Positions 1 through 35,127 of a stretch of 64,000 nucleotides of DNA are shown piece after piece. Made by a program: the position numbers and the translations under genes. Origin of the DNA: Podospora anserina. Taxonomy: Eukaryota. The notes under the pieces are model-generated. The model did no database searches, was not told where the DNA came from, and worked only from the letters and a program-made list of their open reading frames with translations. Position 1 is the first letter of the stretch. Each line of letters starts with the position of its first letter. The DNA is taken from NCBI GenBank assembly GCA_017654855.1, contig CM030336.1:2170001-2234000 (forward strand). The letters are read 5' to 3'.

Positions 1-91
1 CTATTCCCGTCCTGATTGGTTTTACTAGCGATTGGCTGTGCGTGTCATACCCCGCACACGGTCCGCTCTGCCCGTTGGCTTAACTGTGACA
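1..91 (-). mobile_element. U3 end of a chromovirus-family LTR (truncated by window edge), same U3 type as 13739-14143
   Basis: Ends ...ttggcttaactgtgaca. The ataccccgcacacggt segment aligns with gtaccccgtgcacggt at ~14099-14114. Two GATTGG (CCAAT) boxes. Confidence 0.8.
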
Positions 92-3000
92 GTTAGTAAC
101 TTCATTAATATAATTAAAATAAATTATTTATTATATACTATCTAACTGCACCGGAATAAATTATTTAGAAGCGCCTTCAATTATAATTTCTTTCAGAGGT
201 TTTAAATAGGGGTTTATTGTATATTATATATTTATTTTAACATTGCTATAGATGAATTAAAAGCCAGTTTTCTATTATTATTATTAATTACGAAAATATT
301 TAAATAAGTAATGTTCTTACCATACTGTTGATTAAGGGATAACCTACCACTATGGAGATTAGTATTTTCGATTAGCTTTTCGGACGTATTAAGAAGCTTA
401 AAGAAAAACCTTGATAAACTAAAGATTAGATCCTCGCAGTTAACGGAGAAAAACTAAATATTAAAGTTCCTGGTAAGTATTATCGGAAATATTAGTATAA
501 AGTAAAAATATGAAATAACGATCCGGTATTTATTGGTAGGGTCGCTTTAATCTAAAGAGAAAGTAGAAGAGATAAATATTCTTAAGTTATAATATATTAA
601 AAATATATTTAAACGGTAGAATCAATAAATAAAAGATCAAAAATTAATTAATTTCGGTATAGTTAGTATATTAAGCTAAAATACTCTATAGAAAACAACT
701 TTGTAGTATAAGGACTATTTCTAACCTAAAAAGTATATAAACAATATTATTTTTAAATACTAGAATCGACAAAAATATAATTTTAAATATATTTGACATT
801 ATAAGTATAGGACCCTTAAAGGATATAATCCTATGGGAATTATAGTATAAAGACTATAATTTCATAATTGATTAGAGAAATAGTAATCATTTACAATAAA
901 AAAAGCTTTAAAAGTATTTAATTAACGGTGAAAGAGTAAAAATACATACAAAGTAAAGTATAAGATAAGTACCCTCTATAGTATTATTATAAGAAGTTTA
1001 AAACGTAATAACGTTAATAAAAATATCGGAGGTTAACAAATATATTTATTATAATGACGTAAAGAAAGGCGAGAAAAAAGCGGTACCGGTGGAATATCGA
1101 AAGTATCTAGCCTTTACGACTAAGTATTTAAAGGGATTTCTAAAGTAGGAACTAGTAAACTATAATTTTAAATTAAAAAAAGAGGTAAATTACGGCTATT
1201 TAAAGTATGCTATATTAACGATAAGTAAAGTAAAGAGTTATTGAATTTTTCAGCGAGAATTTAAGAAAAGGATATATAAAGGAGTTTATACTATCAGTAA
1301 GATACCCCGTATTTCTATACTGAAAAGAAATAGTAATTTAAGATTATCTTTAGATTACCGTTAGTTAAATAATAAAACGGTTAAGAATAAGTACCCGTTA
1401 TCGTTAATAGCCAGGCTATAGAGTTATTTAATTAGGATATAATACTTCAAATACTTAAATCTATCTATTAAATACGCTCATATATAGATTCAGGGAGGAA
1501 ATAAAAAAAATAACTTTTCGTATACTCTATAATTATTTCGAATATTTCATAATACCATTCGGGTTACGCAATATACCAATAACGCTTTAATCTCTGATTA
1601 TTTATATAATCCGGAAATACTTTGAGAAAATATTACTATATTATTTTAACGATATTCATATTTATTTACGTACTTTAAAGGAATATAAGTAGTACGTATA
1701 AAAACTACTCGATACCTTATACGGAACCGGACTTTTAATTAATGAAGAAAACCAAATTTTATATATAAAAGATAGTATACTTAGGATATTTAATAGTATT
1801 AAGGAAAATTCGAAAAGAATTTGAGAAGATTACGGTTATTAAAGATTAGCTTATACTATAATTATAAATATACGTTAAAAATTTTAAAATCTTTAAATTT
1901 TTATCAAATATTTGTTCGGGGTACGTAAAGATTATGTAGTTTTCATTTATTCAATTAACAAAGACGTAGAGTTCCTGTAAAAGTGGGAGGAAAAATATGC
2001 CTTTTAAGAATTAAAGGAAATTATTTTGAAGGATCCGGTATTTATATTATTAAACCTTAATTAACCGTTCGAGATTAAAATCAATATACCAAACTATATA
2101 ATTCGAGATTAATTAAATTAGCGAAATAATAATGGAGAATTATTTTTCGTAACTCTCTTTTCTAACAAATTAAAGGAAGTATATTAAAATTTTAATCTAT
2201 AATAAAAAGCCATTCCCTATTACTCAAATATCCGAAATGTAAAGGTTATAATTTAATAGTTATAAAATATAGGTCTATATAGATTATAAGAACTTATAAT
2301 ATTTTATTAATGGGAAGGTTTTTAATATACGATAAACGTAATAATTAAAGTTTCTTTTAAAATTTATTTTCTAAATTAATTGTAGAAAGGGTTCGGAAAA
2401 CGCCAAGGTAAATATATGTAGCCGGTAAACTGATTATTACAAAGATATATTGGAGAAATTATATTATTATTTAAAGAAATGTTAAAAGGTACTTTTAAAT
2501 ATTTATTTTAACCGTGACTGAATTATTATATAATATATTATAAGTAAATTACTTTTAATAAATATTAACGGCTATTAAATAATAATATGATGAAGTAATA
2601 TTAATAAAAAATTTTAAAACAAGAAAGTATTTACAAAGATAGTTAAGAAGCACTACAGTATACAAATTGAGCGTATATAAAGTTAGGCGATAGAACGGTA
2701 TTAATATAAAGATTTACGGATAGAAATCCAAAAAATATATAAGTATTATCAAGACTATTAAAAGATTTAATAGTATTGTAATTAATCAAATATTAAAAAT
2801 AAATTTAAGGAAATTAGTTCATTACACTATATAGAAAAAAAGGGATATAAAATATAAACCTTATAAATTACTAAAAAAAAAAAATTGATAACCGGTGTTA
2901 AATATAATAATATATTAACGGTAATCGATAGGTTCATTAAGTAAACGTATTTTTTATTATATAAAGAAATTAAATTAATAAAATAAATAGCCAATATAGT

Positions 3001-3917
3001 ATTACGGTCTATTATAATAATATATATATAATTAAAGTAATTTATTACGGACCATAATATTAAATTCGTATCGAAGTGTTAAAAAGTATTAATAACAAAG
3101 TTACGGATAATGAGTAAAGCGTTTACGGCTTATTACCTTAAAATAAATATCTAAATAAAGCGGTTTCATTAAATTATAAAATAGTATTTCCAGAATTATA
3201 TTAATTTCGAACAAAACAATTAAATGAAAATATTATTTATACTATGATTAATATATAATATCTGTTTTTATAAACTTAAAATATAAAGTAGACTTACGGT
3301 AAGGACTTAATATTAAAGTACTTAAGGTTAGAATTAAAGTAAATAGATTGTATATATTTTACTGTAAGTTTAAGCAAAAACTGGAGTTTATAAAGGAAAG
3401 GATACAGAAATATTATAATATTAAAAGCCTCGAGAGATTTTGCTTATAATGGGGAATATAGTATTCTTTTCTATATGAAAACTACATATTAAAAACCTAT
3501 TAAAAAGCTAGATTATAGGAGAGTAGGCCCATTTGAAATTAAAAGGAAGATATCGGAAATAATTTTCCAATTAAAGTTACTTAGTACGATACGTTTATAA
3601 TTATATACTTTTTCTATTTTACTTTTAAAATGCGTATTACCGGTAAGTAAAGTTAATATATAGGAATGATAAGAAACGGGAAGGAAAAATAAATTATAAA
3701 AAGGATATTAAATTTATAATTGAATAAAAAATAATTAAAATATTTAATTGGTTAATTAAAATACCCGGCTATAAATAATTCGTAGGAACTAACGGTAAAC
3801 CTTAATTACTTAGGTAAACCGAAGGATTCTACCGGTAATACCTCAACCGATTAAAACTAATATGAGTAAAAAAAATATATTAGGATTTTCAAGAAATTAA
3901 AAATCTTAATACGTTAA

Positions 3918-3988
3918 AACCTTTAAAGGGAATCGAACCCGCGCCTCCTACGTAGAAGTCGGCGTATAATGTACTATATAACGAGGTT
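3918..3988 (-). ncRNA. tRNA-like unit embedded antisense in E1
   Basis: Minus strand reads aacctcg-tt-atat-agtacatt-atac-g-ccgac-ttctac-gtagg-aggc-gcggg-ttcgatt-ccctt-taaaggtt-tt. Intact B-box GGTTCGATTCCC; homologous to 16224-16293 and 24329-24398. Confidence 0.75.
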
Positions 3989-4030
3989 AATAGGACCGAA
4001 GGAATTTGGGTATAACTAACATTACGCGGC

Positions 4031-4660
4031 TCAATTACCCTAAGAAATTAGAGGCGTACTATTAACGGTACCTTAGGTAATTAGAAAAGAAGGGCAGGCT
4101 ATATTAGGATTTAAGGAAAAGTCGGAAGGCTAATTAAGACCTAAAGAAAAATCTAGAAAGGAAAAGTTAAATGGGACGGTCACTGAGGACTCTGCTACGG
4201 GACGGTCCCGAAGAGAGATAAAAGAAATAAATTACTCTTTACGATTAACTTTTTTTAACTCTTTTATATTATTAAAACTACGAGAAATAGTATGAAATAT
4301 TTTATTAAGCTAAAGACTTTTTCACTTTTGTAAATGAGCGACTTTAATTATACAAGTAGATAATTTAGCCTTCACCCTTTTTATATTAAAATTAAAACGG
4401 TTATAATAAATAACGATTTTACAAAGGTTAAAGCTAGAGGGATCGCCGGCCTTATAAAAAGACTAATTTGAAAAATATAAAAAGAGTAGCGAATAAAATT
4501 ATTAAAGAAAAGTTCGTAAGGAAATAAACGGCGTTCATAATAGGTATAATAGGTAAATATAGTAGAAAAGTTCCGTAAAATAATATCGAATAAAATGTTA
4601 CGATAAATAGTTTTAGGATAAGTAATTTTCGAGTGTTTAAAACTCCAGTAAAAAAATATA
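4031..4660 (-). pseudogene. RIP-mutated antisense accessory ORF of E1 (Zn2Cys6-like Cys cluster plus coiled coil)
   Basis: Minus strand Y-T-Y-Y-E-R-R-L-F-P-Y-x9-Y-S-F-Y with TAT/TAC at Cys positions (C-x2-C-x6-C-x9-C-x2-C after de-RIP). C-terminus GTVNSTPLIS*GN-stop matches E2/E3. 5' end approximate; at least one frameshift. Confidence 0.65.
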
Positions 4661-4753
4661 TAGTAAAGGATAAAAGAGGAGTTAAAAATTTACCGTATTA
4701 ATAATAAAAAGGAAATTAAGCTATAGGGATTTCGGCTTACAAAAGGAGTATTA

Positions 4754-4867
4754 TATTACGGTTTAAGAGAAGTAGAAACGTTAGGACTAGTAAACCTAAG
4801 CAGGCGAATAAGCAAGGCCTATAGGGTAGAAAATAATACGGGCTAGGGGATTTAGGAAATAGATCCA
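4754..4867 (+). mobile_element. Truncated 3' LTR (U3 fragment) of E1
   Basis: Follows the polypurine tract, starts tattacgg (RIP of tgtcacgg), and is cut by the LTR at 4868. Confidence 0.7.
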
Positions 4868-5238
4868 TGTGACGAACCCCTGTACAGAACCTCTGAAAGG
4901 GATACGGGTTGAAGGTAACTTCTGACAATTGGTTCGGTGCAGCTAAACAGTGCACAATAAGATGTCTCAATATAAACACAAGATACAGTGAATACAATTG
5001 TGAATTGCATACTGCGGAACTGTCTATCTACACCAGCCAGTTCCTCCGTATATATAGACCTGTTTATCACCATTATCACCAGTGATAATGTCGATTATCA
5101 CTCGTCGTTCACCGAAGGCTGGTGATAATCGTGATTATCACCCTTGGCGCTAGTGATAATCTCACTTCCCCACTTTTCCGTTCCTAGTGGTTGGACGGGT
5201 CGCGCCCCGCGCTCCCCACTTATGTCAGGTCCGTGACA
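4868..5238 (-). mobile_element. Chromovirus-family LTR, GATA-repeat U3 type
   Basis: TGTGAC...GTGACA termini, shared R/U5 module and TATATATA box. U3 matches 19124-19262. Flanks atcca/acaaa are not a TSD. Confidence 0.92.
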
Positions 5239-8200
5239 ACAAATTACTGTTCATCTCTGTATTATTACCTTGAATCCTTAAAGAAAAAATTCTTTAATTA
5301 TAAAATAGATTTTATAAACTCAAATTGTTTTGAGATTTTACCTTTATCATATCATAATATATAAAGTAATTACTTATAAATAAAAAGTCTTTTTCTTTTA
5401 TTACTTAGGTTAATGTACGTATTTATTCGTTATTTTCGTTATGTTTCTTTATGTATTTATTATACTTACTAATGGGTCTTTAAACAGTTAACTACTAGGT
5501 ATTTTTCTTAATCGTTATTAACAAATATAAAGTAAATTTATTATAATGATTGTATTAATTAATCAATATACAGTTGGTGATTATGATCAAACTTTCCGGC
5601 TAAACTTTATAAAAATAATTGATAAATTATTTAGGAAAGCTCTATACTAACCTTTATGTTTTATCGCTTTTTTTATACAACAATTATTATTTTCTATATA
5701 TTAACTATTACATTTTATTAGGTGCCCGTTAGCTTACTATCATTTATAAATATGTCTATTCCTCAGGTAAGATCATTGTTTATTCAATATATTAAAGTAT
5801 CTTTGTTTTTATTTTTGGCAATATTTATAAAGATATATAATTATTTGGTTTTTTTTATGTTATTACTACTTTTGTAATTATATCGGTTCATTTCTTATTA
5901 CATATAATATTTATTTTTTACTATGTATAATATTTAGTAACAATGTATTTTTTTAAAACCCTATATTAATACAGTTTAGATTGTATTAAATATTATAGTA
6001 CTTGGAACCTACTTCTGCTTATATATTACTTTATTTATAGTCTATACTTATACTATAATTTTATTTACTAACCTTTCAAACTACTCTTTTATTATTTCAA
6101 TGGTTTTTTAAAGGTTTAACTTAATATTATGATACATTTATAAGTTTCGGTATTATAAAAAATATATTTAATTACTTATTTATTCACTTATAGTTGAACT
6201 AATGATAAGCTAGTAACGATATATAATTCTCTATTTGTAAGGGTAAACAGCTCTTTTAGATTGGTAGATTCTCCCGTATCAGTTTCTTTATATAAATTAT
6301 AAAGTCGAGTTTACTTTTCTTAAATATATTCTTGTGACGAACCCCTATCCAGAACTTTTCAAAGGGATACTGGTTGAAGGCACTTCTGAATAATCCTGGT
6401 TCGGTACAGCTAAACATTGTACAACAAATGGCTTTTCACAATCACAATAGCTAAGATACCACGATTGTGACTTGTATTGCATACTGCGGAACTGTCTATT
6501 TACACCAGCCAGTTCCTCCGTATACATAGACCAGTGGACCGTGGACCGTTGACTTACAGACGGTCCTCGGTCCACTCCTGATTGACCGATACTGGACCGT
6601 GGACCGTGAGCTCCGCCGCGGTCCCCGGTCTCCATCTTATTGGTCCGTTTGCCCACCTGGACCGTGAGCTCCGCTCGATCGCGCGGTCCAGTCCTGATTG
6701 GTCCCTTGTGGCCCCACTGTCTTCCAGAACCGTGACATAAAGATATCATTATAATTTTAAGGATAAAAAGGGTATAAGAATTTTTGGAAGTTTATTAGGG
6801 GGAAAAAATTTATAGGGAAAATTCAAAATTGTTGTAGTACTGGCCAGACTTGACTTTATCTTATCACTTGCTCTGCACCTAACCTGACTCACTTGCTTGG
6901 CTGGTCTGTGCTTACCTACTATACGCTTGTACGTTTAAAGCCCTACTTAGCTGGCTATAAAGCTTTCCGTTTTTTCCCTTCTTTAACTAGAATCCTATCA
7001 AAATAAGTGGTCATATTATATCTTTATATCCTCAAAACCTTACTTATAAGATTATTCTAGCTTAACCGTTATGGTTTTTAAAAACTGTTTCATTTTCTTA
7101 ATTAACAAACCGAACCGAACTAAATTAAAATTCGGGTACTCATTAATGTTATCAAATATAATTATCCAAAAAGTCGCTATTATAAACGGAAAAGTTACTA
7201 TACTAATGAAAGTATATATTTAGAGAATAATTTGGTAATAATTCACATGACGAACACCGAACCCAACTAAATTAACTATTTGTATGTATATACTTTTATG
7301 ATGAGGTTAAGGCTCTTAATTCATATATTTATTAATATATCCAATTTATTTCAGAAATCTTCTTAAGAACCTCTTTATAAATAATAAAATTATTATTAAA
7401 CTCTATTATTACTTAGAATTTATGTGGATATACAGATTATTAGATAAAGAATTATTTTTTATATTATACGCCGAAATAAAAACGAAGATATTTCTTATAT
7501 CATATTAGCTAAGGTTAATAACGTGATATTAATTATATATATCAAGCTAAATGTTATTGAGATAATTTGGAGCCAGTACTTTACCCTTTTATGAGAGAAA
7601 CTAAATAAACATGTTAATAGTAAAATTACTGTATTCATTAAGTTTTTATTATTAATAGTAAAGTTATTAATCTTTTAACATTAAACATAAAATATTAAAT
7701 TTAAAGATCTTCTGAATAACAAGATATTCAATTAATTCATTATGGAAGATTTAAAGGTTATATTTATTAAAATTTCGATTTCCATCTATACCCAGAAATC
7801 CAATATTTATAGCTTTCACAAGTATAGAAATCAAGTAAAGATATCATTATTATCTTTAAATATTCAATAGTTTAAATTATTCTATTAATTTAATAGCCTA
7901 GATTATTTTATTAAGTTAATATCTAAAGGATCCTAAAACTCTTTATTACCCCGTTAACTCCGAAAGTATTTTTTCTTCACTTTAAATAACAAAAATAATA
8001 TCCCCACGAAAACTCTTTGTTTAAATAGAAATAAATAAAGGCTACTTATAACAAATTAGTACCTGTCAAAACAGTGAATTAAATTAATTATACTGTTGAA
8101 TTAAGTTCAGTTATCAGTATTGAATCCATTTACTATAATACGCTTATTTTCTTTTCAAATATTTAATATAACTTTTTCCTTATTACGAAGAGCTTCAAAA

Positions 8201-13738: not shown

Positions 13739-14143
13739 TGTAACGAATCCCTATCCAGAACCTCTAAAAGAGATACTAGTCGAAGGCACTTCTGAATAAT
13801 TCTGGTTCGGTATAGCTAAATAATATATAATAAGGGCTTGTCTTAATTATAATAATTAAAATACTAACGATTATAACTGATATTATATACTACGGAACTA
13901 TTTATTTATATTAGCTGGTTTCTCCGTATATATAGACCTATTGGTTTTCTAGACTATTAACTCCCAATAATAATCCTTTGTTAAATTATTAACTTTTAGT
14001 AATGATCCCGCTTTAAATTACTACCTTTTAGCAATAATTCTATAAGTAAAGTTATTTCCCGTTTTATTTAGCTCTATTAACGATTACCTATATATATCGT
14101 ACCCCGTGCACGGTTTGTCTTACTAAATAGTTTAATTATAATA
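13739..14143 (-). mobile_element. RIP-mutated 3' LTR of a minus-strand chromovirus (probably E2)
   Basis: Starts tgtaacgaatccct and carries the shared R/U5 module. Ends like 1-91 and is followed by the reverse-complement PPT (taatactcctctttttaaa). Confidence 0.85.
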
Positions 14144-14596: not shown

Positions 14597-15033
14597 TATG
14601 ACGAACCCCTATATAGAACCTCTGAAAGGGATACGGGTTAAAGGTAACTTCTAATAATTAGTTCGGTATAGCTAATAGTGCATAATAAAATATTTTAATG
14701 TAAATATAAGATACCGTAAATATAATTGTGAATTGTATATTACGGAACTGTCTATTTATATTAGCTAGTTCCTTTATATATATAGACTTCTTTTCCTAAC
14801 CGTAATTCCTTTAATTAGTGTTCCGAGTATATTAATTACTTACGCTTAGCCTAATTAATATCTTAATTATATTAATTACCCCGGCCTAGCCTACTTAATC
14901 TAATTAGTATTCTAATCGCACTAATTACCGTCCCTCCCTATAATTAGCTTTCTTAAGTATTTTCCTAATTAGCCTTTACTCCTTTAGTTCTATAATTAAT
15001 CGTTATTCTCGTCTATATACTAAGGTTATAATA
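14597..15033 (-). repeat. 3' LTR of E3 (CTGATCAGTG-type U3)
   Basis: Aligns end to end with 23433-23870, differing almost only by C->T/G->A. Confidence 0.93.
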
Positions 15034-15143
15034 CGATACTCCCTCTCTTAAACTAACGTCCCGGTAGCCCCATTCCTTTTATTTTTTTTAATAATAACTT
15101 CCTTCCTTAATAAATTTTCCCTTCCCATTACTATCTTTTCGTA

Positions 15144-16181
15144 ATATTTAACCGCGTTAAGAAACCTACGCCGAAAGGCCCTTTGTTACGAATATAATGT
15201 GGATACCCGCAAAGAATAACTAATAGGAAAGAGGAGGCACGGCAGCCAATTAAGAGAAGGGAGGATGGACTAGTAAGAGGTGGATCATCCGGGACATGAA
15301 GAAATCATAAGCGATTCCCGGAAATCACTTATGATCCTTAAGAATCGGTCATGATCCGGGGAGAAACAGAATGATTTAGGCTTAGCATTAGGTCTATATA
15401 TACGGAGGAACTAGATAGCTTGTAGATGGTTCCGCAGTATACAATTTACAGTTGTATTTACGGCATTTTGTGTTTATATCGAGATATCTTATTGTGCACT
15501 GTTTAGCTGCACCGAACTAATTGTCAGAAGTACCTTCAATTAGTATCCCTTTTAGAGGTTCTGTACAGGGGTTTGTCACACCCTTCTAATACCCTTCGCC
15601 GCTAAAATCTTATTACCGCTACTTTTATTTTTAATAACGAAATCCTTCCCTATTCGTCCTGGGAAGCTCTTAATATTTTTGGTTATCGCGCTCTCGAGCG
15701 CTTTTCTAGATATAACTACTACATTAATTCTAGTCGTTCCGACTGCGACGTCCTAGGTCTTACTCCTGCTTTAATAGTCTCTCTTCGTCGCTAGAAAGAG
15801 AAACTAGACGCCGAAGAGCAAAAGGCCTATACGACTATACTATAAATTACCTCGAAGCTTTCGCGGGTAGAGACCTAGCGTCGTACTTTAGTCGCTAAGT
15901 TCCGTTATATCGCGGCCCGCGAGGAGCGGTTAATCGAGGACTTAGAACGGGAGGAAGTATAAATTGCTTTTATTATTAATCTTCCTTTAACCTTTTCTCT
16001 TAATTAGGCCTCTATAATATTAAACTAGCTCGGCTTAGACCTTCCGGATAACCTATTCTTTAACCTTCCGCTTAGTTCTAACTTTTTTATAAAGTTAATT
16101 GTTAATCCTTTCCGGAGTTCCCCGCTTCCGGCTACCCCGGACTTTTCCGGCGGTAATCCTCCTATTTTCTAGGGTAATTAA
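15144..16181 (+). pseudogene. Antisense accessory ORF of E3 (Zn2Cys6-like cluster plus coiled coil, ~210 aa), interrupted by the solo LTR 15184-15580
   Basis: After removing the solo LTR and one TSD, a single frame runs from ATA (RIP of ATG): xFNRVKKPTPKGPSNTLRR*NL...EILPYSSWEALNIFGYRALERFSRYNYYINSSRSDCDVLG...LRR*KEKLDAEEQKAY...AAREERLIEDLEREEV...PDFSGGNPPIF*GN-stop. All internal stops are TAA/TAG, consistent with RIP of CAA/CAG. Confidence 0.8.
15184..15580 (+). mobile_element. Solo LTR of the chromovirus family, TCATGATCCGG-type U3
   Basis: TGTTAC...GTCACA termini, perfect TSD ccctt/ccctt, shared R/U5 module. Confidence 0.93.
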
Positions 16182-16223
16182 CGCTTATAGTATTACTTAC
16201 GCCCGGATTTCTTTATATTTATT

Positions 16224-16293
16224 AACTTTATAGTATAGTACGTAGTATATTAATTATTACGTCGAAGGCGTAAATTCGATTTTTATCGAGGTT
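16224..16293 (+). ncRNA. tRNA-like unit embedded antisense in E3 (heavily RIP-mutated)
   Basis: 70 nt, ungapped alignment with 24329-24398, runs into a T7 tract. Confidence 0.65.
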
Positions 16294-16990
16294 TTTTTAT
16301 ATTTAAGTTATAAATACTTTTTTATAATTTAAATATAGTTCTTTTTACTTACTTAAGTTTAAATCGGTTTAAGTATTATCGGTAAAAATTTTTTAACTTA
16401 TTTAAATAATTAAAATATATTTATAATTCTTATAAGTTATTTATAACCGGGTATTTTAATTAATTAATTAAATATTTTATTTAACCTTTATTAAACCGTA
16501 AATTTAATAATTTTTTTATATTATACTTTTCTTCTTCGTTCTCCATTACTTCCTATATATTTACCTTACTTACCGGTAGTACGGGTTCCAAAAGTAAAAT
16601 ATAAAAAGTATATAACTTTAAACGTATCGTATTAGGTAATTCTAATTCGAATATCGTTTTTAAAATCTTTTTTTTTAATTTAAATAGGCTTACTTTCCTA
16701 TAGTCTAGCTTCTTACTAAGTCTTTTAATATGTAAATTACGTATAAAAAGGAATACTATATCCCTCCCCTTAAAGTAAAGTCCCTCGAGCCTTTTAATAT
16801 TATAATATTTCTATATTTTTTTCCTTATAAACTTTAGTTTTTATTTAAGCTTATTGTAGAATATATATATTTTATTTACTTTAACCCCGGCCTTAAGTAC
16901 CTTTACGTTTAATCCTTACCGTAGGTTTACTTTATATTTAAAGTTTACGAAGAACGGCGTAACTTTAGTCGTTTCTATTAGTAATATATT

Positions 16991-17624
16991 TGTTAATGTG
17001 TGGGTACTACTAAGTGCCCTACTTACTGCCCTACAGATTGATATTACAGTGGGCAGTACTGCTATAAGCAGTAATGGAACTTCCCGGCTTGGATCCCTTT
17101 AGAATATTCTTTACAAGGGACCCTTGAAGGCTTACAGGGCTACTGTGGCCTGAGGCTTAGTCAATGGATACTAGAACCTTCCAAAGTGGCTACAGGCTTA
17201 CGTAGTAAGTTGCCACAATGGTGTAATTTATAGGGCACCTTTGCTACTGAAGGTTCTATAGATTTCCATAAGTCTACACTAGACCCACCTAAGCCCACTA
17301 AATACCCAAAGTGGTATAGGGGCTTCCAGGGCCTACAGGACCCACAGTAGGCCTACGAAGGCCTATATATAGACCTCTCCTCTCTCCTGTAAAATAGTTC
17401 CTTTCTTTTTTTCCTTAAGGGCAAAAGCTTAAGGCTAAGGCCAAAGGCCAAGGCCAAGGGTAATAAAGGCAATTCTTATTCTTTATACCTCACTGTATTA
17501 CAGTGCTTTACCTTCCTTCGGCACTGCCGTCGTATCCTCCCGCTTCCGCTTGCGCACTGCTGTATTTTACAGCAACCCTGTATAGGTTCTATATTATAGG
17601 CCTATCAGGGCTTACCAGCTAACA
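16991..17624 (+). mobile_element. Solo LTR of an unrelated family (634 bp)
   Basis: TGTTA...TAACA termini, perfect TSD atatt/atatt, TATATATA at ~17364, AATAAA at ~17462. Interrupts the E3 integrase region. Confidence 0.88.
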
Positions 17625-19123
17625 ATATTATATACTAATTATACCGTAAATAATAATTTAATTTAATTATCTTACTCGAAATTAATATAAATCTATAAGT
17701 ACTATTCTATAATTTAATTAAGCTGTTCCGTTTAATCGTTTATTTAAAGGTAGTAGGCCGAAAATACTTTACTTATTACCCTTAACCTCGTTATTAACGC
17801 TCTTTAAAACTTCGAAATAAATTTAATATCGCGGTCCGTAATAAACTCTTTCGGCTATATATATATTAATATAATATACCGTAGTACTATATCCGTTAAT
17901 TACTTTACCGATTAAATCTCTTTATAAAATAAAAAATATATTTACTTTATAAGCCTATCGACTACCGTTAATATACTATCGTACTTAACGCCGGTTACCG
18001 TATTTCTTAACTTTAGTAATTTAGTAATAAAGTTTATCGTAATTAAACTCTATAGTCGTTCTACTACTAGTAGTAGCTTTAGAAATCCGTAAGGCTTATA
18101 CTTCGTAACCCTTATTTTTTCGTACGTATAGTATAACTAGATAGCTTTTTTAATATTATCCTTAATCCTTAATTAATTAAAGTATTACTTAATCTTTTCT
18201 ATAGTCTTTACGATACCTATATATCCTCTGAACTTCGATCCGTAAATTTTTATTATTAGTATCGCCTTATTACTTAGCTTTACGTATACTCGATTCTTAT
18301 ACTATAATTTTCCTTAACTATCTTTTTAAATACTTTATAGCTTTAATTCTTCCTATTACTATTATTCCGTAATATTATTACTTAACTTCCTTTAATATTT
18401 ATTAGAAATAACTTACTTACGATACATTATATAACACTTTATTTACGGCTAAAATAGATATTTAAGAGTACCGTTTAGCGTTTCCTTAAGTAATAGTAGT
18501 AACTTTTTAGGTATATCCTTATAGTAGTCGGTTCGCCGGCTAAATACGTTTACCCTAACGTTCTCCGATCCCTTTTTATAATTAATTTAAAAATTAAATT
18601 CCGAAAAAAACTTTAATTATTACGTTTACTATACGTTAAGGACTTTCGTAATAGTAAAGTATCGTAAATTCTTATAATCCGTATAGACCTATATTTTATA
18701 ATTAATATTATTAAAGTATAGCCTCTATTCCTCGAACGCTTCGATAATAGCAAGTAGCTCTTTATTATAAATTAAATAGTTTTAACGTACCCCTTTTAGC
18801 TTTTTCGAAAAGAAAACTATTAAATATAACTTTCTATCGTCGTCTCGCTATCCTAATTGTCTACCGATCGTATAGTTTAATATATCTACCTCGACCTCGA
18901 ATAGTCGATTAGGGTTTAGTAATTTAAGTACTGGGTCCTTTAAAATAACTTTTTTTAGCTCCTAAAAGGCTTATTCCTTTTCCTACCCTTACCGGAACTC
19001 CACGTCTTTTTTAGTTAAATAATTAAATAGTTACGCGATTCTTACGTATTTATAAATAAATATCCGATAGAAATTTATAAACCTTAAAAATTCCCTAACG
19101 TATATCTATAATTACGGCGTAGG

Positions 19124-19454
19124 TGTCACGGACCTAATATAAGTGGGGAGCGCGGGGCGCGACCAGTCCAACCACTAGGAACGGAAAAGTGGGGAAGTCA
19201 GATTATTACTAGCGCCAAAAGTGATAATCGATATTATCATTAGTAATAATGGTAATAAATAGGTCTATATATACGAAGGAACTAGCTAGTGTAGATAGAT
19301 AGTTCCGCAGTATGCAATTTATAATTATATTTACGGTATTTTGTGTTTATATTGAGACATTTCGTTGTGCACTATTTAGCTGCACCGAACCAATTGTCAG
19401 AAGTTACCTTTAACCCGTATCCCTTTTAGAGGTTCTGTACAGAGATTCGTCACA
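19124..19454 (+). mobile_element. Solo LTR of the chromovirus family, GATA-repeat U3 type (40 bp shorter than 4868-5238)
   Basis: TGTCAC...GTCACA termini, perfect TSD gtagg/gtagg. Confidence 0.94.
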
Positions 19455-22445
19455 GTAGGCCAGTCCTTAACTACCCCAATTTTCCTAGGTTTTATACGAA
19501 CCTTACCTAGTAATATTAAATATCCTAGATATACTATCTTTTATACGTGGAACTCGCTCTTTTCTTTATTAATTAAAAGTCCGGCTCCGTATAGCGCGTC
19601 GAGTATCTTTTATACATATCGCTTATATTTTCTCTAAAGTACGTAAGTAGATAAGAACGTTATTAAAATAATATATTATTGTTTTATCGAGGTATTTCCG
19701 GATCGTGTAGTTAACGAGAGATTGGAACGTCGCGGGCGTATTAATTAGCCTAAATAGTATTACAAGATACTTAAAATAACTATAGAATATATAAAACACT
19801 ATTTTCTATTTATCTCTTTCCTTAATCTGTATATAGGCGTACCCGATAAGTATATTTAAACGTATAAAGTATCGCGCCCTAATTAATTAACTTCGTAACC
19901 TAAATATTAACGGTAGCGGGTAATTATTTTTTATCGTTTCGTTATTTAGTTAGCGGTAGTCTATATATAGTTGTAAGCTACCGTCCTTTTTCGGTACGAA
20001 AAATACGGGGTATCCTACTAGCGATATAAACTCCTAATATATCCTCTCTTTAAATTCTTATCTAAATACTTCCGTAGCTCTTTACTTTACTTATCGTTAA
20101 TATAGTAAACCTTAAATAGCTATAGCTTAGCTCCTTCTTTTAACTTAATTTCATAGTTCTACGGTTCTTACTCTGGAAATCCCTTTAAATATTTAGCTAT
20201 AAAGGCTAAGTATCTTCGATATTTTACTAATACCGTTTTTTTCTTACTTTTCTCTACGTTATTATAATAAATATACTTATTAACCTCCGATATCTCCATT
20301 AACGTCGTTAACCTTATTTCTTCGATTTTACCGCCTATATTAATAAAATATATTATTACTTCTTAGGCTCTTTACGGTAGTACCGTAGAGGGTACTTATC
20401 CTACACTCTACTCTATACGTGCGCCTAATCTCCTATCGTTAGCTAAATACTTTTAAAGTTCCTTTAATTATAAATAACTATTATTTTTTTAATTAATATT
20501 TAGCTTATAGTTTTTATACTATAATTACCCTAGGATTATATTTTTCGAGGGTCCTATATCTATAATATTAAATATAATTAAAATTATTTTTCCTTCGACT
20601 ATAATATTTAAAAGTAATATTTTTTTATAAACCTTTTACGTCGGAAATAGTTTTTATATAACGATTTATTCCTTCTTTTTTTTCTATAGTATTTTAATCT
20701 AATATATAAACTATAACGAAATTAAATTCGTTTCTATACCTTCGTTTATTAATATTACTATTTAAATATTTTTTTAATACGTTATAACTTAAAAGTATTT
20801 ATCTTTTTTACCTTTTCTTTATATAGTAACGACTTTATTAATAAGTATTAGGTCGTTATCCTATACCTTTACTTTACGCCGATACTTCCGGAAAATACCG
20901 TTCGTAGTTTATTAAAGGTTACCGGCCCCCGCGAAGGGCCGCGAGTTATTTCTTAAGCGGTTATATTATTTAAAAGCGTCTTTCTACTCCGGATTATTTA
21001 GTAATATAAAGTCCTTTAACTATACTCGTTTAGTTTCCTTCTATTTTCCGTCTCTAACGTTCCTAGTATTTTATTGAGTATACTTTTAATAATACTTCCG
21101 TTACTTAGTTAATACCTTAAGCTCGGCGGCCTAATAGTATCGCCTAACTTTTTATTATAAATATAGCGCGTAGTCTAGGCTTAAGTACTACTATAGTACT
21201 ACCTTTTCTCCCGAGATTTTACTATTTAACGTATAGCTTTCGTCGATATACCCGAGGTAGTACCTTACCTCTTTTAGCGTAAACTAAATTACTTAAAATC
21301 TATTTTCTAATTAAATTACTTTCCTTGCTTTCTATAATAAATAATCGTTTAATTCTTTATTAATTTTATTTTATTTTATTATCGTTTTTTTAATTAGCTA
21401 TAACTTACTTTCCTTACTTACCTTACGTACCGGCTAGTAACCGTATAGCGACTTACTTTAATAATACTCTACATATCCGTATATAATACACTAGAACTAA
21501 AGTGCTTTCCGATACTCCGGATATTTAGGATAAAACTATACTATATTTCCTTTATAGGGTATATACCTTATAAATATAAATGTATCTCTTAATAACTTTA
21601 CGATCCTAATATTAACGATTTTTTTATTTTTCTAATATTTTTCCTAACTTTTATATATAAGTTTCTTAAACTATATTTATATAACGGCGATCCTATATTT
21701 ACCGTATTACTTCTTTAGTATTATTTACCGGATAAGTCCTTCCTATTACGTAACATTATTCTTTTTAGTAACCTCCGTAACGATTTCCGTAATAACTTAT
21801 ACTATTTACTTTTATAATACCTATATCTAAAAATCTCCTTCCTCGTGCTCTACCTTTAGCCTTTCCATTACTTTCTACAGCTCCTGGAACTCTATTTCTT
21901 ACGTAGCGTATTAGTTAGAGTCTTCCTCGAAGCTTACCGCTTCGATTTATTAGTACCCGATAACTACGACCTTTATAACTCTCGGTCCTTTTAATATAAT
22001 AATTATTATAATATCCTTTTTCTATCCGAGTTACTTAAGTGCCCTATAGTCCTTCTTAAAGTATCCTGTTTTACCGCAGTTAAAACATTTACGGTTATCT
22101 TTACCCTTATCCCGGCCCTACAACCTTTACTACTAAATAGCGTCGACTTCTATAGGCCTTACGTAGGTAGTCCCTAAAACGTAAGTTCCGTAAAGCCGTC
22201 TCTTTTTCTTATCGTTAGGGCAGTACGGCCCTTACACACGTATACCCTTACGCTCTCTACGGCGCTAGTATTATCGATCGTTAATACGGACTACCATTAT
22301 AATGTACTCGTCGATAGTCTCCGGTCGCTCCATTCGATATAGCTCGTCCTTAACTTTTTCCTTAAACCCGTTATAGAACAACTGCATTAACCTTTCGTCG
22401 TTAATCGCGCTGCGGAGCGCGTCCGTCCTAAACGCTATAGTGTAG

Positions 22446-22846
22446 TGTCACGGTTCTGGAAGACAGTGGGGCCACGAGGGACCAATCAGGACTGGACCGA
22501 GCGATCGAGCGGGGCTCACGGTCCGAGTGGACGGAACGGACCAATAAGATGGGGACCGGGGACCGCGGCGGGGCTCACGGTCCACGGTCCAGTATCGGCC
22601 AATCAGGAGTGGACCGAGGACCGTCTGTAAGTTAACGGTCCACGGCCCTAAGGTCTATATATACGGAGGAACTGGCTGGTGTAGATAGATAGTTCCGCAG
22701 TATGCAATGACAAGTCACAATCGTGGTATCTTAACTATTGTGATTGAGATATCTTGTTATGCACTATTTAGCTGCACCGAACTAATTGTCAGAAGTTACC
22801 TTCAACTAGTATCCCTTTCAGAGGTTCTATATAGGGGTTCGTCACA
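22446..22846 (+). mobile_element. Solo LTR of the chromovirus family, GGACCG-repeat U3 type
   Basis: TGTCAC...GTCACA termini, TSD tgtag/tatag (one RIP change), inserted in E3 gag. Confidence 0.94.
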
Positions 22847-23432
22847 TATAGTCGGCAGTAAATCGAGTCTATTTAAGGTTAGCTAGTCGCTCCTGGGCAC
22901 CCTTACCCTCGTTATATTCTCCAAATACCTCCTTAATCTTCTTCTTAAAGCCCTTATACGACTTAAAACACGTCTAGGTAACCTCCTCCCTCTCGTTATA
23001 TATATTATCGAAGTAGTCTCTTAAGATCGGCTCGAACTACGTAAATACTATATCCTTAAGCCTGGACGTAATATACACGACTTTAGATTCCTCGTCCGGG
23101 AAACGAGAAGGGTAATACCGAAAGTAAGCTTTAAGTTAGATTAAGAATCCTCCTAGCTTTCCTTTTATACCTCCGTAGCGGTCGGGTACCTTAAGTTTGG
23201 TACGTTTTTCCTCCTTACGTAAGGTACTAATCTCTTAGTGGAGTATAGCGTTTTTTTACGTAAAGGTATCGTAGGAAAGGCGTGATTTATCCTTAAGCTT
23301 TTAGATACGAGCGAGAAGCTAATCGATAGTAAGTTGGGTAAACGCCCTTACCTAAGTATTAACGTTTCCGGCTATAACGTTAATTTAATACCTTTAATTT
23401 ATCCGTAATAGAGTTAAAGTAAATATATAACG

Positions 23433-23870
23433 TATAACGAACCCCTATATAGAACTTTTAAAAGGGATACGGGTTAAAAGTAATTTTTAATAATTAGTTC
23501 GGTATAGTTAAATAGTATATAATAAGATATTTTAATGTAAATATAAAATACCGTAAATATAATTGTGAATTGTATACTACGGAACTATCTATCTATATTA
23601 GCTAGTTCCTCCGTATATATAGATTTCTTTTTTTAGCCGTGATTCCTCTGATTAGTGTCCCGAGTATACTAATTACTTACGCTTAGCCTAATTAGTGTCC
23701 TGATTACACTGATTACCCCGGCCTAGCCTGCTTAGTCTGATCAGTGCTCTGATCGCACTGATGACCGTCCTTTCCTATGATTGGCTCTCCTAGGTGTTTT
23801 CCCGATTAGCCCCTGCTCCCTTAGTTCTATAACTAATCGTTATTCTCGTCTATATACTAAGGTTGTGACA
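23433..23870 (-). repeat. 5' LTR of E3
   Basis: Pairs with 14597-15033; followed on the minus strand by the PBS and gag. Confidence 0.93.
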
Positions 23871-24051
23871 TCAGTGCCTCATAAGCCTATGTTACAGTGA
23901 TTATCTTTTATATATTACAGGGCGCCGCCTCTGCAATCCACCTTCCCTCAGTGCTCTGGCAACTGTCAAATGCTGCAGTCAAAGTCTTCTTCGCTCTCAG
24001 TGTACTGCGCCGATAGCTATTCGAGCCTATATTCTACAGGCCTTAATAGCA

Positions 24052-24288
24052 CCTAAAGGAGTTATAAAAAACTAAGCGCGAAAAGTAATATATTCGTTCC
24101 GCTTTTTTTCGGGACTATTTTGTAGTGGAGCCCTCCGTTACTATCCCTTCCGGTTTTCTTTTCTAGATTTTTCTTTAGGCTTTAACTAGCTTTCCAACCT
24201 TTCCTTATTTTTTAATATAGTTAGTACTTCCTTCTTAACCGGTTAGGGTACCGCCGGTAATACGCCTTTAATTTCTTACGGTAATTAA
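24052..24288 (+). pseudogene. C-terminal remnant of the antisense accessory ORF of E2
   Basis: Ends ggt acc gcc ggt aat acg cct tta att tct tac ggt aat taa (GTAGNTPLISYGN-stop), homologous to the E1/E3 C-termini. Aligns with the reverse complement of 4031-4270. Confidence 0.7.
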
Positions 24289-24328: not shown

Positions 24329-24398
24329 AACTTTATAATATAGTATATAGCACGCTGGTTATTATATCGGAGGCGCAGGTTCGATTCCCGTCGAGGTT
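24329..24398 (+). ncRNA. tRNA-like unit embedded antisense in E2 (best-preserved 3' half)
   Basis: aacttta-ta-atat-agtatata-gcac-g-ctggt-tattat-atcgg-aggc-gcagg-ttcgatt-cccgt-cgaggtt-tt. Forms a cloverleaf after de-RIP; B-box GGTTCGATTCCC. Confidence 0.75.
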
Positions 24399-34685: not shown

Positions 34686-35127
34686 TGTGACGAACCCCTG
34701 TACAGAACCTCTGAAAGGGATACGGGTTGAAGGTAACTTCTGACAATTGGTTCGGTGCAGCTAGACAGTGCACAACAAGATGTCTCAATGTAAACACAAG
34801 ATACCGTGAATACAACTGTGGATTGCATACTGCGGAACTGTCTATCTACACCAGCCAGTTCCTCCGTATATATAGATCCTGGGGCCCTGAGGTGCTCGCC
34901 CTGCTACGGCCCCGATTACCCATAACACATTGCATCCTGCAAAGTGCTCGTCGTGCTATGCCTCTGATCACTCGTAGCATCTTGCATCCTGCAGAGTGCT
35001 CGTGTGTCTTGGCGCCATAGCGCTTTCGTCCAGCCCTGATTGGCTGTCTCCTGACTTCTCTAATGATTGGCTAGGGACGTCCTGCGCCCCACATGTGGCG
35101 CGGCCTGCTGTTGGGTTAACTGTGACA
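34686..35127 (-). mobile_element. Solo LTR of the chromovirus family, least mutated copy, at the AT/GC boundary
   Basis: TGTGAC...GTGACA termini, perfect TSD tatac/tatac, shared R/U5 module. U3 has a TTGCATCCTGCA(A/G)AGTGCTCGT direct repeat and two GATTGG boxes. Confidence 0.95.

Follow-up and report, generated by a model that had tools for sequence, protein, structure and literature searches.

What does a mutation-ridden fungal retrotransposon encode antisense to pol, in the interval that separates pol from the 3' long terminal repeat (LTR)? The question is raised by a 64,000-nucleotide stretch of Podospora anserina DNA (assembly GCA_017654855.1, contig CM030336.1, positions 2,170,001 to 2,234,000), hereafter called the window, which contains several retrotransposon copies damaged by repeat-induced point mutation (RIP). 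In one of these, copy A, an earlier note made from the sequence had proposed a hidden antisense open reading frame (ORF) encoding a Zn(II)2Cys6-like cluster followed by a coiled coil. We conclude, with a probability of roughly three in four, that the frame is a dead copy of the third gene of a family of gypsy-type chromoviruses, placed antisense between pol and the 3' LTR and encoding a six-cysteine, coiled-coil, transcription-factor-like protein. That a real gene of the transposable element (TE) lies here is very probable. The main proposal of the earlier note, a TE-encoded transcription-factor-like protein, thus holds for the gene and its architecture, and a role as transcription factor is tentative.

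The antisense frame and its natural relatives

The frame comprises 212 codons on the plus strand, in two parts (15144-15183 and 15586-16181), and lies opposite to pol, between the pol end and the 3' LTR of copy A (Table 1). A solo LTR splits its codon 14 and is flanked by a target duplication of 5 bp, CCCTT, found at 15179-15183 and 15581-15585. Since the solo LTR and one copy of the duplication add up to 402 nt, that is 3 x 134, the frame continues across the insertion; this arithmetic holds for any frame. Following the removal of these 402 nt, the alignment with P0009, a protein of 211 residues from Triangularia verruculosa, resumes after the LTR, as expected from the proposal that the frame is continuous once the insertion is taken out. 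The proposed limits of the frame, 15144 and 16181, were also found to be correct: the start, IFNRVKKPTPKGP, aligns with the N-terminus of P0009, which begins MSNRVKKSTPKGP, and position 16181 closes a TAA stop codon.

The stop-masked translation of the frame (P0001, with stops written as X) was used as a HMMER query against 1.84 billion representative proteins. Six proteins matched, the best being P0003, with an E value of 2.2e-36 and 51% identity over 178 residues, which carries the UniRef label of a Zn(2)-C6 fungal-type domain protein. A profile built from the natural matches led to a family of 14 proteins, whose named sources are Podospora pseudopauciseta, P. australis, Triangularia verruculosa, T. 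setosa, Achaetomium macrosporum and Gaeumannomyces avenae, and the corresponding family hidden Markov model (HMM) recognised copy A of the window with an E value of 4e-33.

A lack of cysteine at the six cluster positions of the homologues had been named beforehand as a result that would refute the proposal. All six cysteines were found in 15 out of 15 natural sequences, a set in which two translated metagenome loci are included. The family spacing is C-x2-C-x6/7-C-x8/9-C-x2-C-x7-C, followed by CDV.G and by a long charged helix. Apart from the six cysteines, the residues invariant in the 15 sequences are G71, L87, R107 and Q111, and the natural family sequences average 30% identity. The family product has a length of about 211 residues and is made up of a basic N-terminal arm, the six-Cys module, a helix of about 65 residues and a Pro/Ser-rich tail. 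The charged helical stretch and the Pro/Ser-rich tail noticed after the cluster in the window are both recovered, the former as the long charged helix of the family and the latter as a low-confidence segment in the structural model described below.

The damage to the window copy was assessed against P0009, to which 125 positions of the 212-codon frame are identical. A mismatch was counted as RIP-compatible when C-to-T or G-to-A changes alone suffice to turn a codon for the homologue's residue into the window codon. Of 86 mismatches, 67 are RIP-compatible, against an average of 18.5 in 1000 shuffles, none of which exceeded 33; for the part covering codons 14-212, 179 of 197 positions are RIP-compatible with P0009. 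All eight internal stops and the change of the start codon from ATG to ATA are of this kind. Within the cluster, four cysteines were changed to tyrosine by G-to-A, the second was changed to tryptophan in a way that RIP does not account for, and the sixth is intact. The earlier note had taken the TAT and TAC codons as RIP products and the tryptophan as requiring one non-RIP change; indeed, four of the five lost cysteines are G-to-A products and the tryptophan is not. The window copy of the antisense gene is dead.

The motif that first drew attention to the frame, Y-x2-W-x7-Y-x8-Y-x2-Y-x7-C at 15651-15746, is present exactly as claimed, in the plus frame read from 15651. A count of the loose [YCW] pattern without stops over the six frames of the 35-kb RIPed block gave one occurrence against 0.30 expected, with at least one in 24 of 100 simulations, and Pfam searches with the RIPed, stop-masked translations of the region (seven frames or copies) returned no family at E values up to 10. 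Both observations would suit the explanation that the Tyr/Trp/Cys pattern arose by chance in AT-rich, RIPed, non-coding 3' untranslated DNA. This explanation is refuted by natural proteins that match at E 2e-36 and carry the six cysteines, as well as by a RIP-compatibility far above the shuffles, and we regard its probability as negligible. The motif alone being within chance, the antisense gene is accepted as real because of homology and not because of the motif count. A sense-strand reading, in which the pol frame extends through the region with many stops (the sense translations were not searched against databases), was also considered and was dropped, as it is the plus frame that has strong homologues.

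Traces of the gene are present in the three window copies of the element, in full in A, at a family HMM E value of 0.046 in E1 and as the tail only in B. The pattern Y-x2-Y-x6-Y-x9-Y-x2-Y, which had been reported from the diverged copy E1, was found on the minus strand, starting at 4548, at the expected place of the cluster. Specifically, extrapolation from the family-HMM coil match predicts Cys1 and Cys5 at 4549 and 4480, and Tyr codons stand at 4548 and 4479; in addition, 15 of 19 codons of the E1 tail are RIP-compatible. In B the RIP-compatibility score is at noise level, the tail excepted.

Two further observations concern these copies. In B, the polypurine tract is missing together with the first two thirds (5') of the antisense gene; in their place stand about 230 bp of GC-richer and little-RIPed sequence (23871-24100), which, read on the minus strand, has an LTR-end-like terminus, ...CACTGTAACA. 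In columns 629-647 of the DNA alignment A1 (window positions about 16100-16120), A has 19 bases more than E1 and B, shifting the frame on both strands; this excess falls in the tail, a part in which an overlap of the antisense gene with pol is possible.

Intact loci, selection and the carrier element

The DNA context of relatives was examined on two metagenome contigs, L001 and L002, both unmutated and both encoding members of the family. Of 593 pattern matches obtained when metagenomes were scanned with the family alignment, none was confirmed; the scan with P0020 led to L001 and L002. At both loci the gene is antisense to pol and overlaps its end (Table 1). The minus-strand ORFs run off the contig ends and contain SH3_Tf2-1 and Chromo domains at E values of 1e-17 to 1e-21, and about 100 nt upstream of the ATG a purine tract is followed by TGTTAYGAACC, the LTR start. 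The linkage to LTR elements, whose lack had been named in advance as a ground for refuting the proposal, was therefore observed at two loci out of two. The window shows a spacing like that of the intact loci, with the LTR edge at 15033 and the antisense start at 15144. In all three cases the gene lies inside the element, between the pol end and the 3' LTR and on the opposite strand, which is the location that defines the aORF-3R class of antisense genes.

Two of the database relatives, P0004 and P0015, have an additional in-frame stretch upstream, MPPLQ.., whose counterpart in L001 is the complement of the polypurine tract. This hints, on sequence grounds, that these two proteins may come from the same element position. 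The N-terminal extensions upstream of the conserved MSNRV start, in these two proteins and in the prediction at 33-527 (plus strand) of L001, read through that complement (..PPLQ..) and are probably annotation artefacts.

Comparison of L001 with L002 over 144 aligned codons outside the overlap revealed 45, 35 and 92 differences at codon positions 1, 2 and 3, respectively, and different codons at 49 of 89 identical residues, whereas within the pol overlap the counts are flat (36, 34 and 35). The third-position excess outside the overlap indicates that the frame is under purifying selection as a protein. These data bear on the explanation that the antisense transcript itself matters, for example by giving rise to double-stranded RNA, the open frame being incidental or an artefact of gene prediction. 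Such an explanation could draw on the review PMC7264820, which lists regulation mediated by double-stranded RNA among the possible roles of aORFs, and on the fact that the database members are mostly 'hypothetical proteins' on contigs of 1-3 kb. Against it stand the third-position excess with the 49 synonymous codon changes, the cysteines that stay invariant across sequences averaging 30% identity, and a frame that runs uninterrupted for 202-221 codons at each of the intact loci, all of which make it very improbable.

In the same pair, identity is 53% for the antisense gene and 57% for the integrase/chromodomain end of pol. The claim that the gene is more divergent between copies than pol thus finds no support in this one intact pair, although it looks true between the RIPed window copies. 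Several copies together with a conservation like that of the element's own genes, as described for aORF-3R genes, were found here in the form of the three window copies and the L001/L002 pair. A related alternative is that a fragment of a host zinc-cluster gene was captured by one element lineage through transduction, as the spacing and the fold resemble the DNA-binding end of fungal host factors. We regard this too as very unlikely, given that position and orientation are shared by the window element and two others, whose protein is about 30-33% identical to P0009, and that the gene is as conserved as the pol C-terminus in the intact pair; a profile search among longer proteins (546-2000 residues) matched none, so that no longer host protein was found, which is weak evidence. 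An ancient capture is possible as the origin of the gene.

As far as the carrier is concerned, the AT-rich block covers the first 35 kb of the window (GC content 0.19-0.40 per kb), and self-comparison of the window resolved it into nested LTR retrotransposon copies, with one internal sequence present in the three copies A, B and E1. Pfam searches with stop-masked six-frame translations of copy A found RT_RNaseH_2 (E 3.1e-19), RT_RNaseH and the Tf2-type integrase SH3 domain (SH3_Tf2-1), all of them in a single minus frame, and no match in the plus frames of 15001-23004. The Pfam Chromo family was not matched on the RIPed window copy, and the chromodomain was recognised through alignment to the L002 pol. 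With RT-RNase H, integrase and chromodomain on one strand, TG..CA LTR ends, a 5-bp duplication and a purine tract, the host of the window locus is a Ty3/gypsy chromovirus of Sordariomycetes.

Ten LTR copies were recognised, which have about 190 bp at one end in common (73-90% identity) and differ in the other half. A second solo LTR, at 19118-19465, lies inside the pol of A and is oriented like the solo LTR of the antisense gene. The LTR at 4868-5238, after E1, is in the opposite orientation to E1 and hence marks another insertion or a truncation point rather than the 3' LTR of E1 itself. In the integrase region of A, about 630 bp (16991-17620) are not present in B or E1 and have a GC content of 0.38, above that of the surroundings. 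A word resembling a tRNA T arm, GGTTCGATTCC, is conserved in E1 and B directly 3' of the chromodomain, at 3929-3939 (minus) and 24378-24388 (plus); it was rejected as a tRNA-like motif, with 0 genes from ARAGORN, 0 matches in Rfam and a word count of 12 against 12.4 expected, that is, chance. The remainder of the window has a GC content of 0.44-0.57 and ordinary genes, which between 35440 and 62480 encode a DUF7099 protein, a 2-oxoacid dehydrogenase acyltransferase, an Atg4-type C54 peptidase, a zuotin-like C2H2 protein, an SPX protein and a Cys/Met-type pyridoxal phosphate (PLP) enzyme.

Table 1. Coordinates of the antisense gene, its carrier element and its relatives; positions for L001 and L002 are those of the metagenome contigs, all others those of the window.
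Feature	Position	Strand	Remarks
Antisense gene of A, first 13 codons (basic N-terminal arm)	15144-15183	+	reads IFNRVKKPTPKGP (15144-15182); start now ATA
Solo LTR in antisense gene, related LTR subfamily	15184-15580	+	ends TGTTACG...GTCACA (TG..CA); last ~190 bp match nine other window LTRs
Antisense gene of A, codons 14-212	15586-16181	+	8 internal RIP stops; TAA stop 16179-16181; stop-masked translation P0001
Six-Cys cluster remnant (Y, W, Y, Y, Y, C)	15651-15746	+	codons TAT TGG TAT TAT TAC TGC
Long helix / coiled coil	15765-15959	+	P0009 residues 74-138, AlphaFold2 model
Pro/Ser-rich tail, low-confidence, probably disordered	15960-16178	+	model confidence (pLDDT) <50 from residue 147; overlaps pol 3' end in intact relatives
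Antisense gene copy in E1	4034-4548	-	heavily RIPed, frameshifted; family HMM E 0.046 over 4387-4034 (coil and tail, weak)
Antisense gene tail in B	24145-24260	+	DNA alignment A1; 5' two thirds replaced
Element copy A	about 15033-22150	-	self-comparison
Element copy B	23433 to about 28900	-	self-comparison
Element copy E1	about 477-4868	+	self-comparison
pol of A, integrase C-terminus and chromodomain start	16436-16882	-	tblastn with L002 pol fragment, E 3.7e-19
3' LTR of A	14597-15033	-	86% identity to copy B LTR 23433-23864; ends read directly
Polypurine-tract-like AAGAGAGGGAG	15039-15049	-	few bases upstream of 3' LTR of A; direct reading
Ten LTR copies	14597-15033, 15184-15580, 19124-19454, 22446-22846, 23433-23864, 4868-5238, 6333-6737, 13739-13943, 34686-34876, 109-214		
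L001 antisense gene	230-838	+	202 aa
L001 pol	672-1226	-	3'-end overlap with antisense gene 167 nt
L002 antisense gene	218-883	+	221 aa
L002 pol	818-1621	-	3'-end overlap with antisense gene 66 nt

Predicted fold, pairing and possible role

The structure of P0009 was modelled with AlphaFold2 (AF2) on an alignment of 16 rows, giving a mean predicted local distance difference test score (pLDDT) of 69. In the model, two short helices (residues 37-41 and 57-62, pLDDT 71-77) each start at a C-x2-C pair and precede the long helix 74-138, which is predicted with pLDDT above 90, and the tail falls below 50 from residue 147. When the model was compared with the PDB by Foldseek, 12 of the 19 matches listed were Zn2Cys6 DNA-binding domains, namely those of Put3, Pho7, Lac9, Leu3, Hap1, Gal4 and AlcR. 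Superposition by VIA-align gave a root-mean-square deviation of 2.0 Å over 40 residues for Hap1 (Z 3.1) and of 1.5 Å over 33 of 33 residues for Lac9 (Z 2.5). The structure matches in the ESM Atlas, with template modelling (TM) scores of 0.56-0.74, were mostly zinc-cluster factors and lay under the bar of the tool. On the strength of these models, we consider it probable that the six-Cys module adopts a zinc-cluster fold.

Several results weigh against assigning the protein to the Gal4-type factors or against the wider interpretation. The cluster was modelled with a confidence of only 71-77 on the 16-row alignment, and none of the Foldseek matches listed against the PDB had an E value below 1. 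The VIA Z scores of 2-3 are low, as expected for so small a domain, and may reflect common arrangements. The 21-bit cut-off of Pfam Zn_clus (PF00172) was never reached, with weak partial matches in 6 of 15 members (best E 0.084), and a sequence profile search of the PDB returned helical and coiled-coil noise only, with no zinc-cluster chain at E values up to 10. The DNA context, moreover, covers two relatives besides the window.

The spacing and charge of the module point in the same direction. The consensus spacing of Gal4-type clusters is C-x2-C-x6-C-x5-12-C-x2-C-x6-8-C; the exact x6 first loop is present in 4 of 15 members, and a first loop of x7 in 11 of 15, the window lineage included. 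In Gal4-type factors, the Lys and Arg residues that contact the DNA (CGG contacts) lie in the loop between Cys2 and Cys3, and in the family this loop is not basic: in 14 of 15 members its net charge does not rise above zero. Positive charge is found in the N-terminal arm, at +3 to +10 wherever the arm is present (10 members), and loop 3 contains a conserved Arg. The reading of the earlier note, a Gal4-type cluster followed by a coil, has on its side the six cysteines, the helix and the resemblance of the predicted fold, and against it the Pfam cut-off, the x7 loop of most members and the non-basic loop. In conclusion, the protein is Zn2Cys6-like, and its membership of the Gal4 type is not established.

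We then considered the pairing of the long helix. A homodimer model of P0009 residues 30-150 scored 0.58, compared to 0.07 for the best of three controls, and passed the mark for a dimer. In the calibration of this mark on microbial proteins, it was reached by 21 of 30 proteins solved as pairs of identical chains and by 0 of 23 solved as single chains; among eukaryotic proteins, 17 of 29 pairs reached it, only 1 of the 7 that lacked an older solved relative did so, and of 30 single chains none did. The dimer runs agreed in at least 96% of the contacts, with a partner pLDDT of at least 81. The model lends support to a pairing of two chains, short of demonstrating it.

The geometry of the modelled dimer is antiparallel, as the residue numbers of 25 out of 25 least-error contacts add up to 194-203, which places the centre near residue 98-100. 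At the interface, residues 34-41 and 66-72, belonging to the cluster, touch residues 121-129 of the other chain. In Gal4, Put3 and Ppr1, the cluster is followed by a parallel coiled coil. The antiparallel pairing would place the two clusters at opposite ends, unlike in Gal4, and is a further point against a Gal4-like action.

From these elements a mechanism may be outlined. Since the ATG lies about 100 nt from the LTR edge, antisense transcription would start from a promoter in, or adjoining, the U3 end of the 3' LTR. No RNA record is listed for 15586-16400, and contigs from four sequencing runs presumed to be of RNA gave no match to it at 80% similarity; neither result speaks for or against expression. 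In the resulting protein, the six cysteines would hold two zinc ions and the helix would form a homodimer, which would act in the nucleus and regulate the transcription or the integration of its own element, either through LTR DNA or through a host factor. HBZ of human T-cell leukaemia virus type 1 (HTLV-1), reportedly an antisense-encoded regulator, offers an analogy for such an action. That the protein is a DNA-binding regulator of the element is a tentative proposal, possible but short of even odds. A more specific version, in which the protein binds in a sequence-specific manner to the variable U3 half of its own LTR, and co-evolution of the protein surface with U3 drives the splitting of crapaud-like LTRs into subfamilies, is improbable on present evidence.

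Alternatively, the six-Cys module may be a structural zinc knot for protein contacts, the protein being an adaptor for integrase, chromodomain or Gag, or a decoy whose helix pairs with host zinc-cluster factors. The non-basic first loop of 14 of the 15 members, the antiparallel dimer model with the cluster of one chain touching the helix end of the other, and the sub-threshold Pfam Zn_clus matches would all fit this alternative, whereas the basic arm of every one of the 10 members with a complete N-terminus (+3 to +10), the conserved Arg of loop 3 and the fact that the nearest solved folds are all DNA-binding domains argue against it. As formulated, we hold it to be rather unlikely. Given the non-basic loop and the antiparallel model, a role in protein binding only is a serious rival of DNA binding by the TE-encoded, transcription-factor-like protein that we favour.

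Comparison with known systems

The main gypsy family of Podospora is crapaud, which carries a chromodomain, is heavily RIPed and has LTRs with a common 3' half and divergent U3 halves (PMC10787394). The diagram of crapaud in that study has two ORFs, and its main text uses neither 'antisense' nor 'zinc' (0 occurrences of each); putatively active copies are reported there. The ten LTR copies of the window display the same pattern of a common 3' half and a diversified U3. Because the LTR description of crapaud fits the window LTRs, the window element looks like crapaud or a close relative, which we put forward as a candidate identity on the basis of these sequence features.

An antisense gene of fungal gypsy elements, brtn, was reportedly described by Zhao et al. 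in 2011. It belongs to the Boty-like gypsy elements of Botrytis cinerea (PMC8365987, PMC7264820, PMC4227169), and the review PMC7264820 (Figure 1I and text) places it among the aORFs located between pol and the 3' LTR. The two systems are alike in having an extra antisense gene in a fungal Ty3/gypsy element with a chromodomain. They differ in that no domain is reported for brtn in the available parts of the three papers; no protein named after Botrytis or Sclerotinia was found among the six HMMER matches and the 14 family matches of the profile. The antisense aORFs of plants (PMC7264820) share with the window family the position, the orientation and the presence in most copies, and some of their products are nuclear, with a suspected regulatory role. 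They occur in non-chromovirus lineages, whereas the window family has a six-Cys module and a helix predicted to dimerise. For antisense aORFs in general, the same review, in its available parts, reports no clear similarity to other proteins and no known function.

In the literature available to us, the crapaud study (PMC10787394) included, we found no description of a zinc-cluster protein encoded by a retrotransposon. Antisense genes in fungal gypsy elements are known already, and the zinc-cluster-like family and its fold appear to be undescribed. The family provides the antisense gene between pol and the 3' LTR with a recognisable architecture, namely a basic arm, a six-Cys module and a helix modelled as dimerising, in addition to purifying selection. 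As relatives of Podospora, a genetically tractable model, carry the gene, the question of what an antisense gene does for a retrotransposon becomes directly testable. A practical consequence is that, in annotations of RIP-prone fungi, some of the genes called 'hypothetical' or 'Zn(2)-C6' proteins of the host belong to transposons.

The family can also be set beside the fungal Zn(II)2Cys6 factors (Gal4, Put3, Hap1, Lac9, Pho7, Leu3 and AlcR). The likeness lies in the six cysteines with a near-canonical spacing, the superposition of the model at 1.5-2.0 Å, the helix after the cluster and the occurrence in fungi only. The antisense protein differs from these factors in having about 200 residues, in lacking a regulatory or activation domain, in being transposon-encoded, in falling below the Pfam threshold and in a dimer that is modelled as antiparallel.

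Outside the fungi, HBZ of HTLV-1 is an antisense basic leucine zipper (bZIP) factor transcribed from the 3' LTR, with an established function. It resembles the protein discussed here as a small, dimerising, transcription-factor-like product of the minus strand that adjoins the 3' LTR of a retroelement, and it differs in its bZIP fold, in the host kingdom and in the lack of homology, the function of the antisense protein being inferred. Should the protein indeed bind the U3 half of its own LTR, the element would be a transposon with a private transcription factor, and the family a fungal counterpart of the retroviral antisense regulators.

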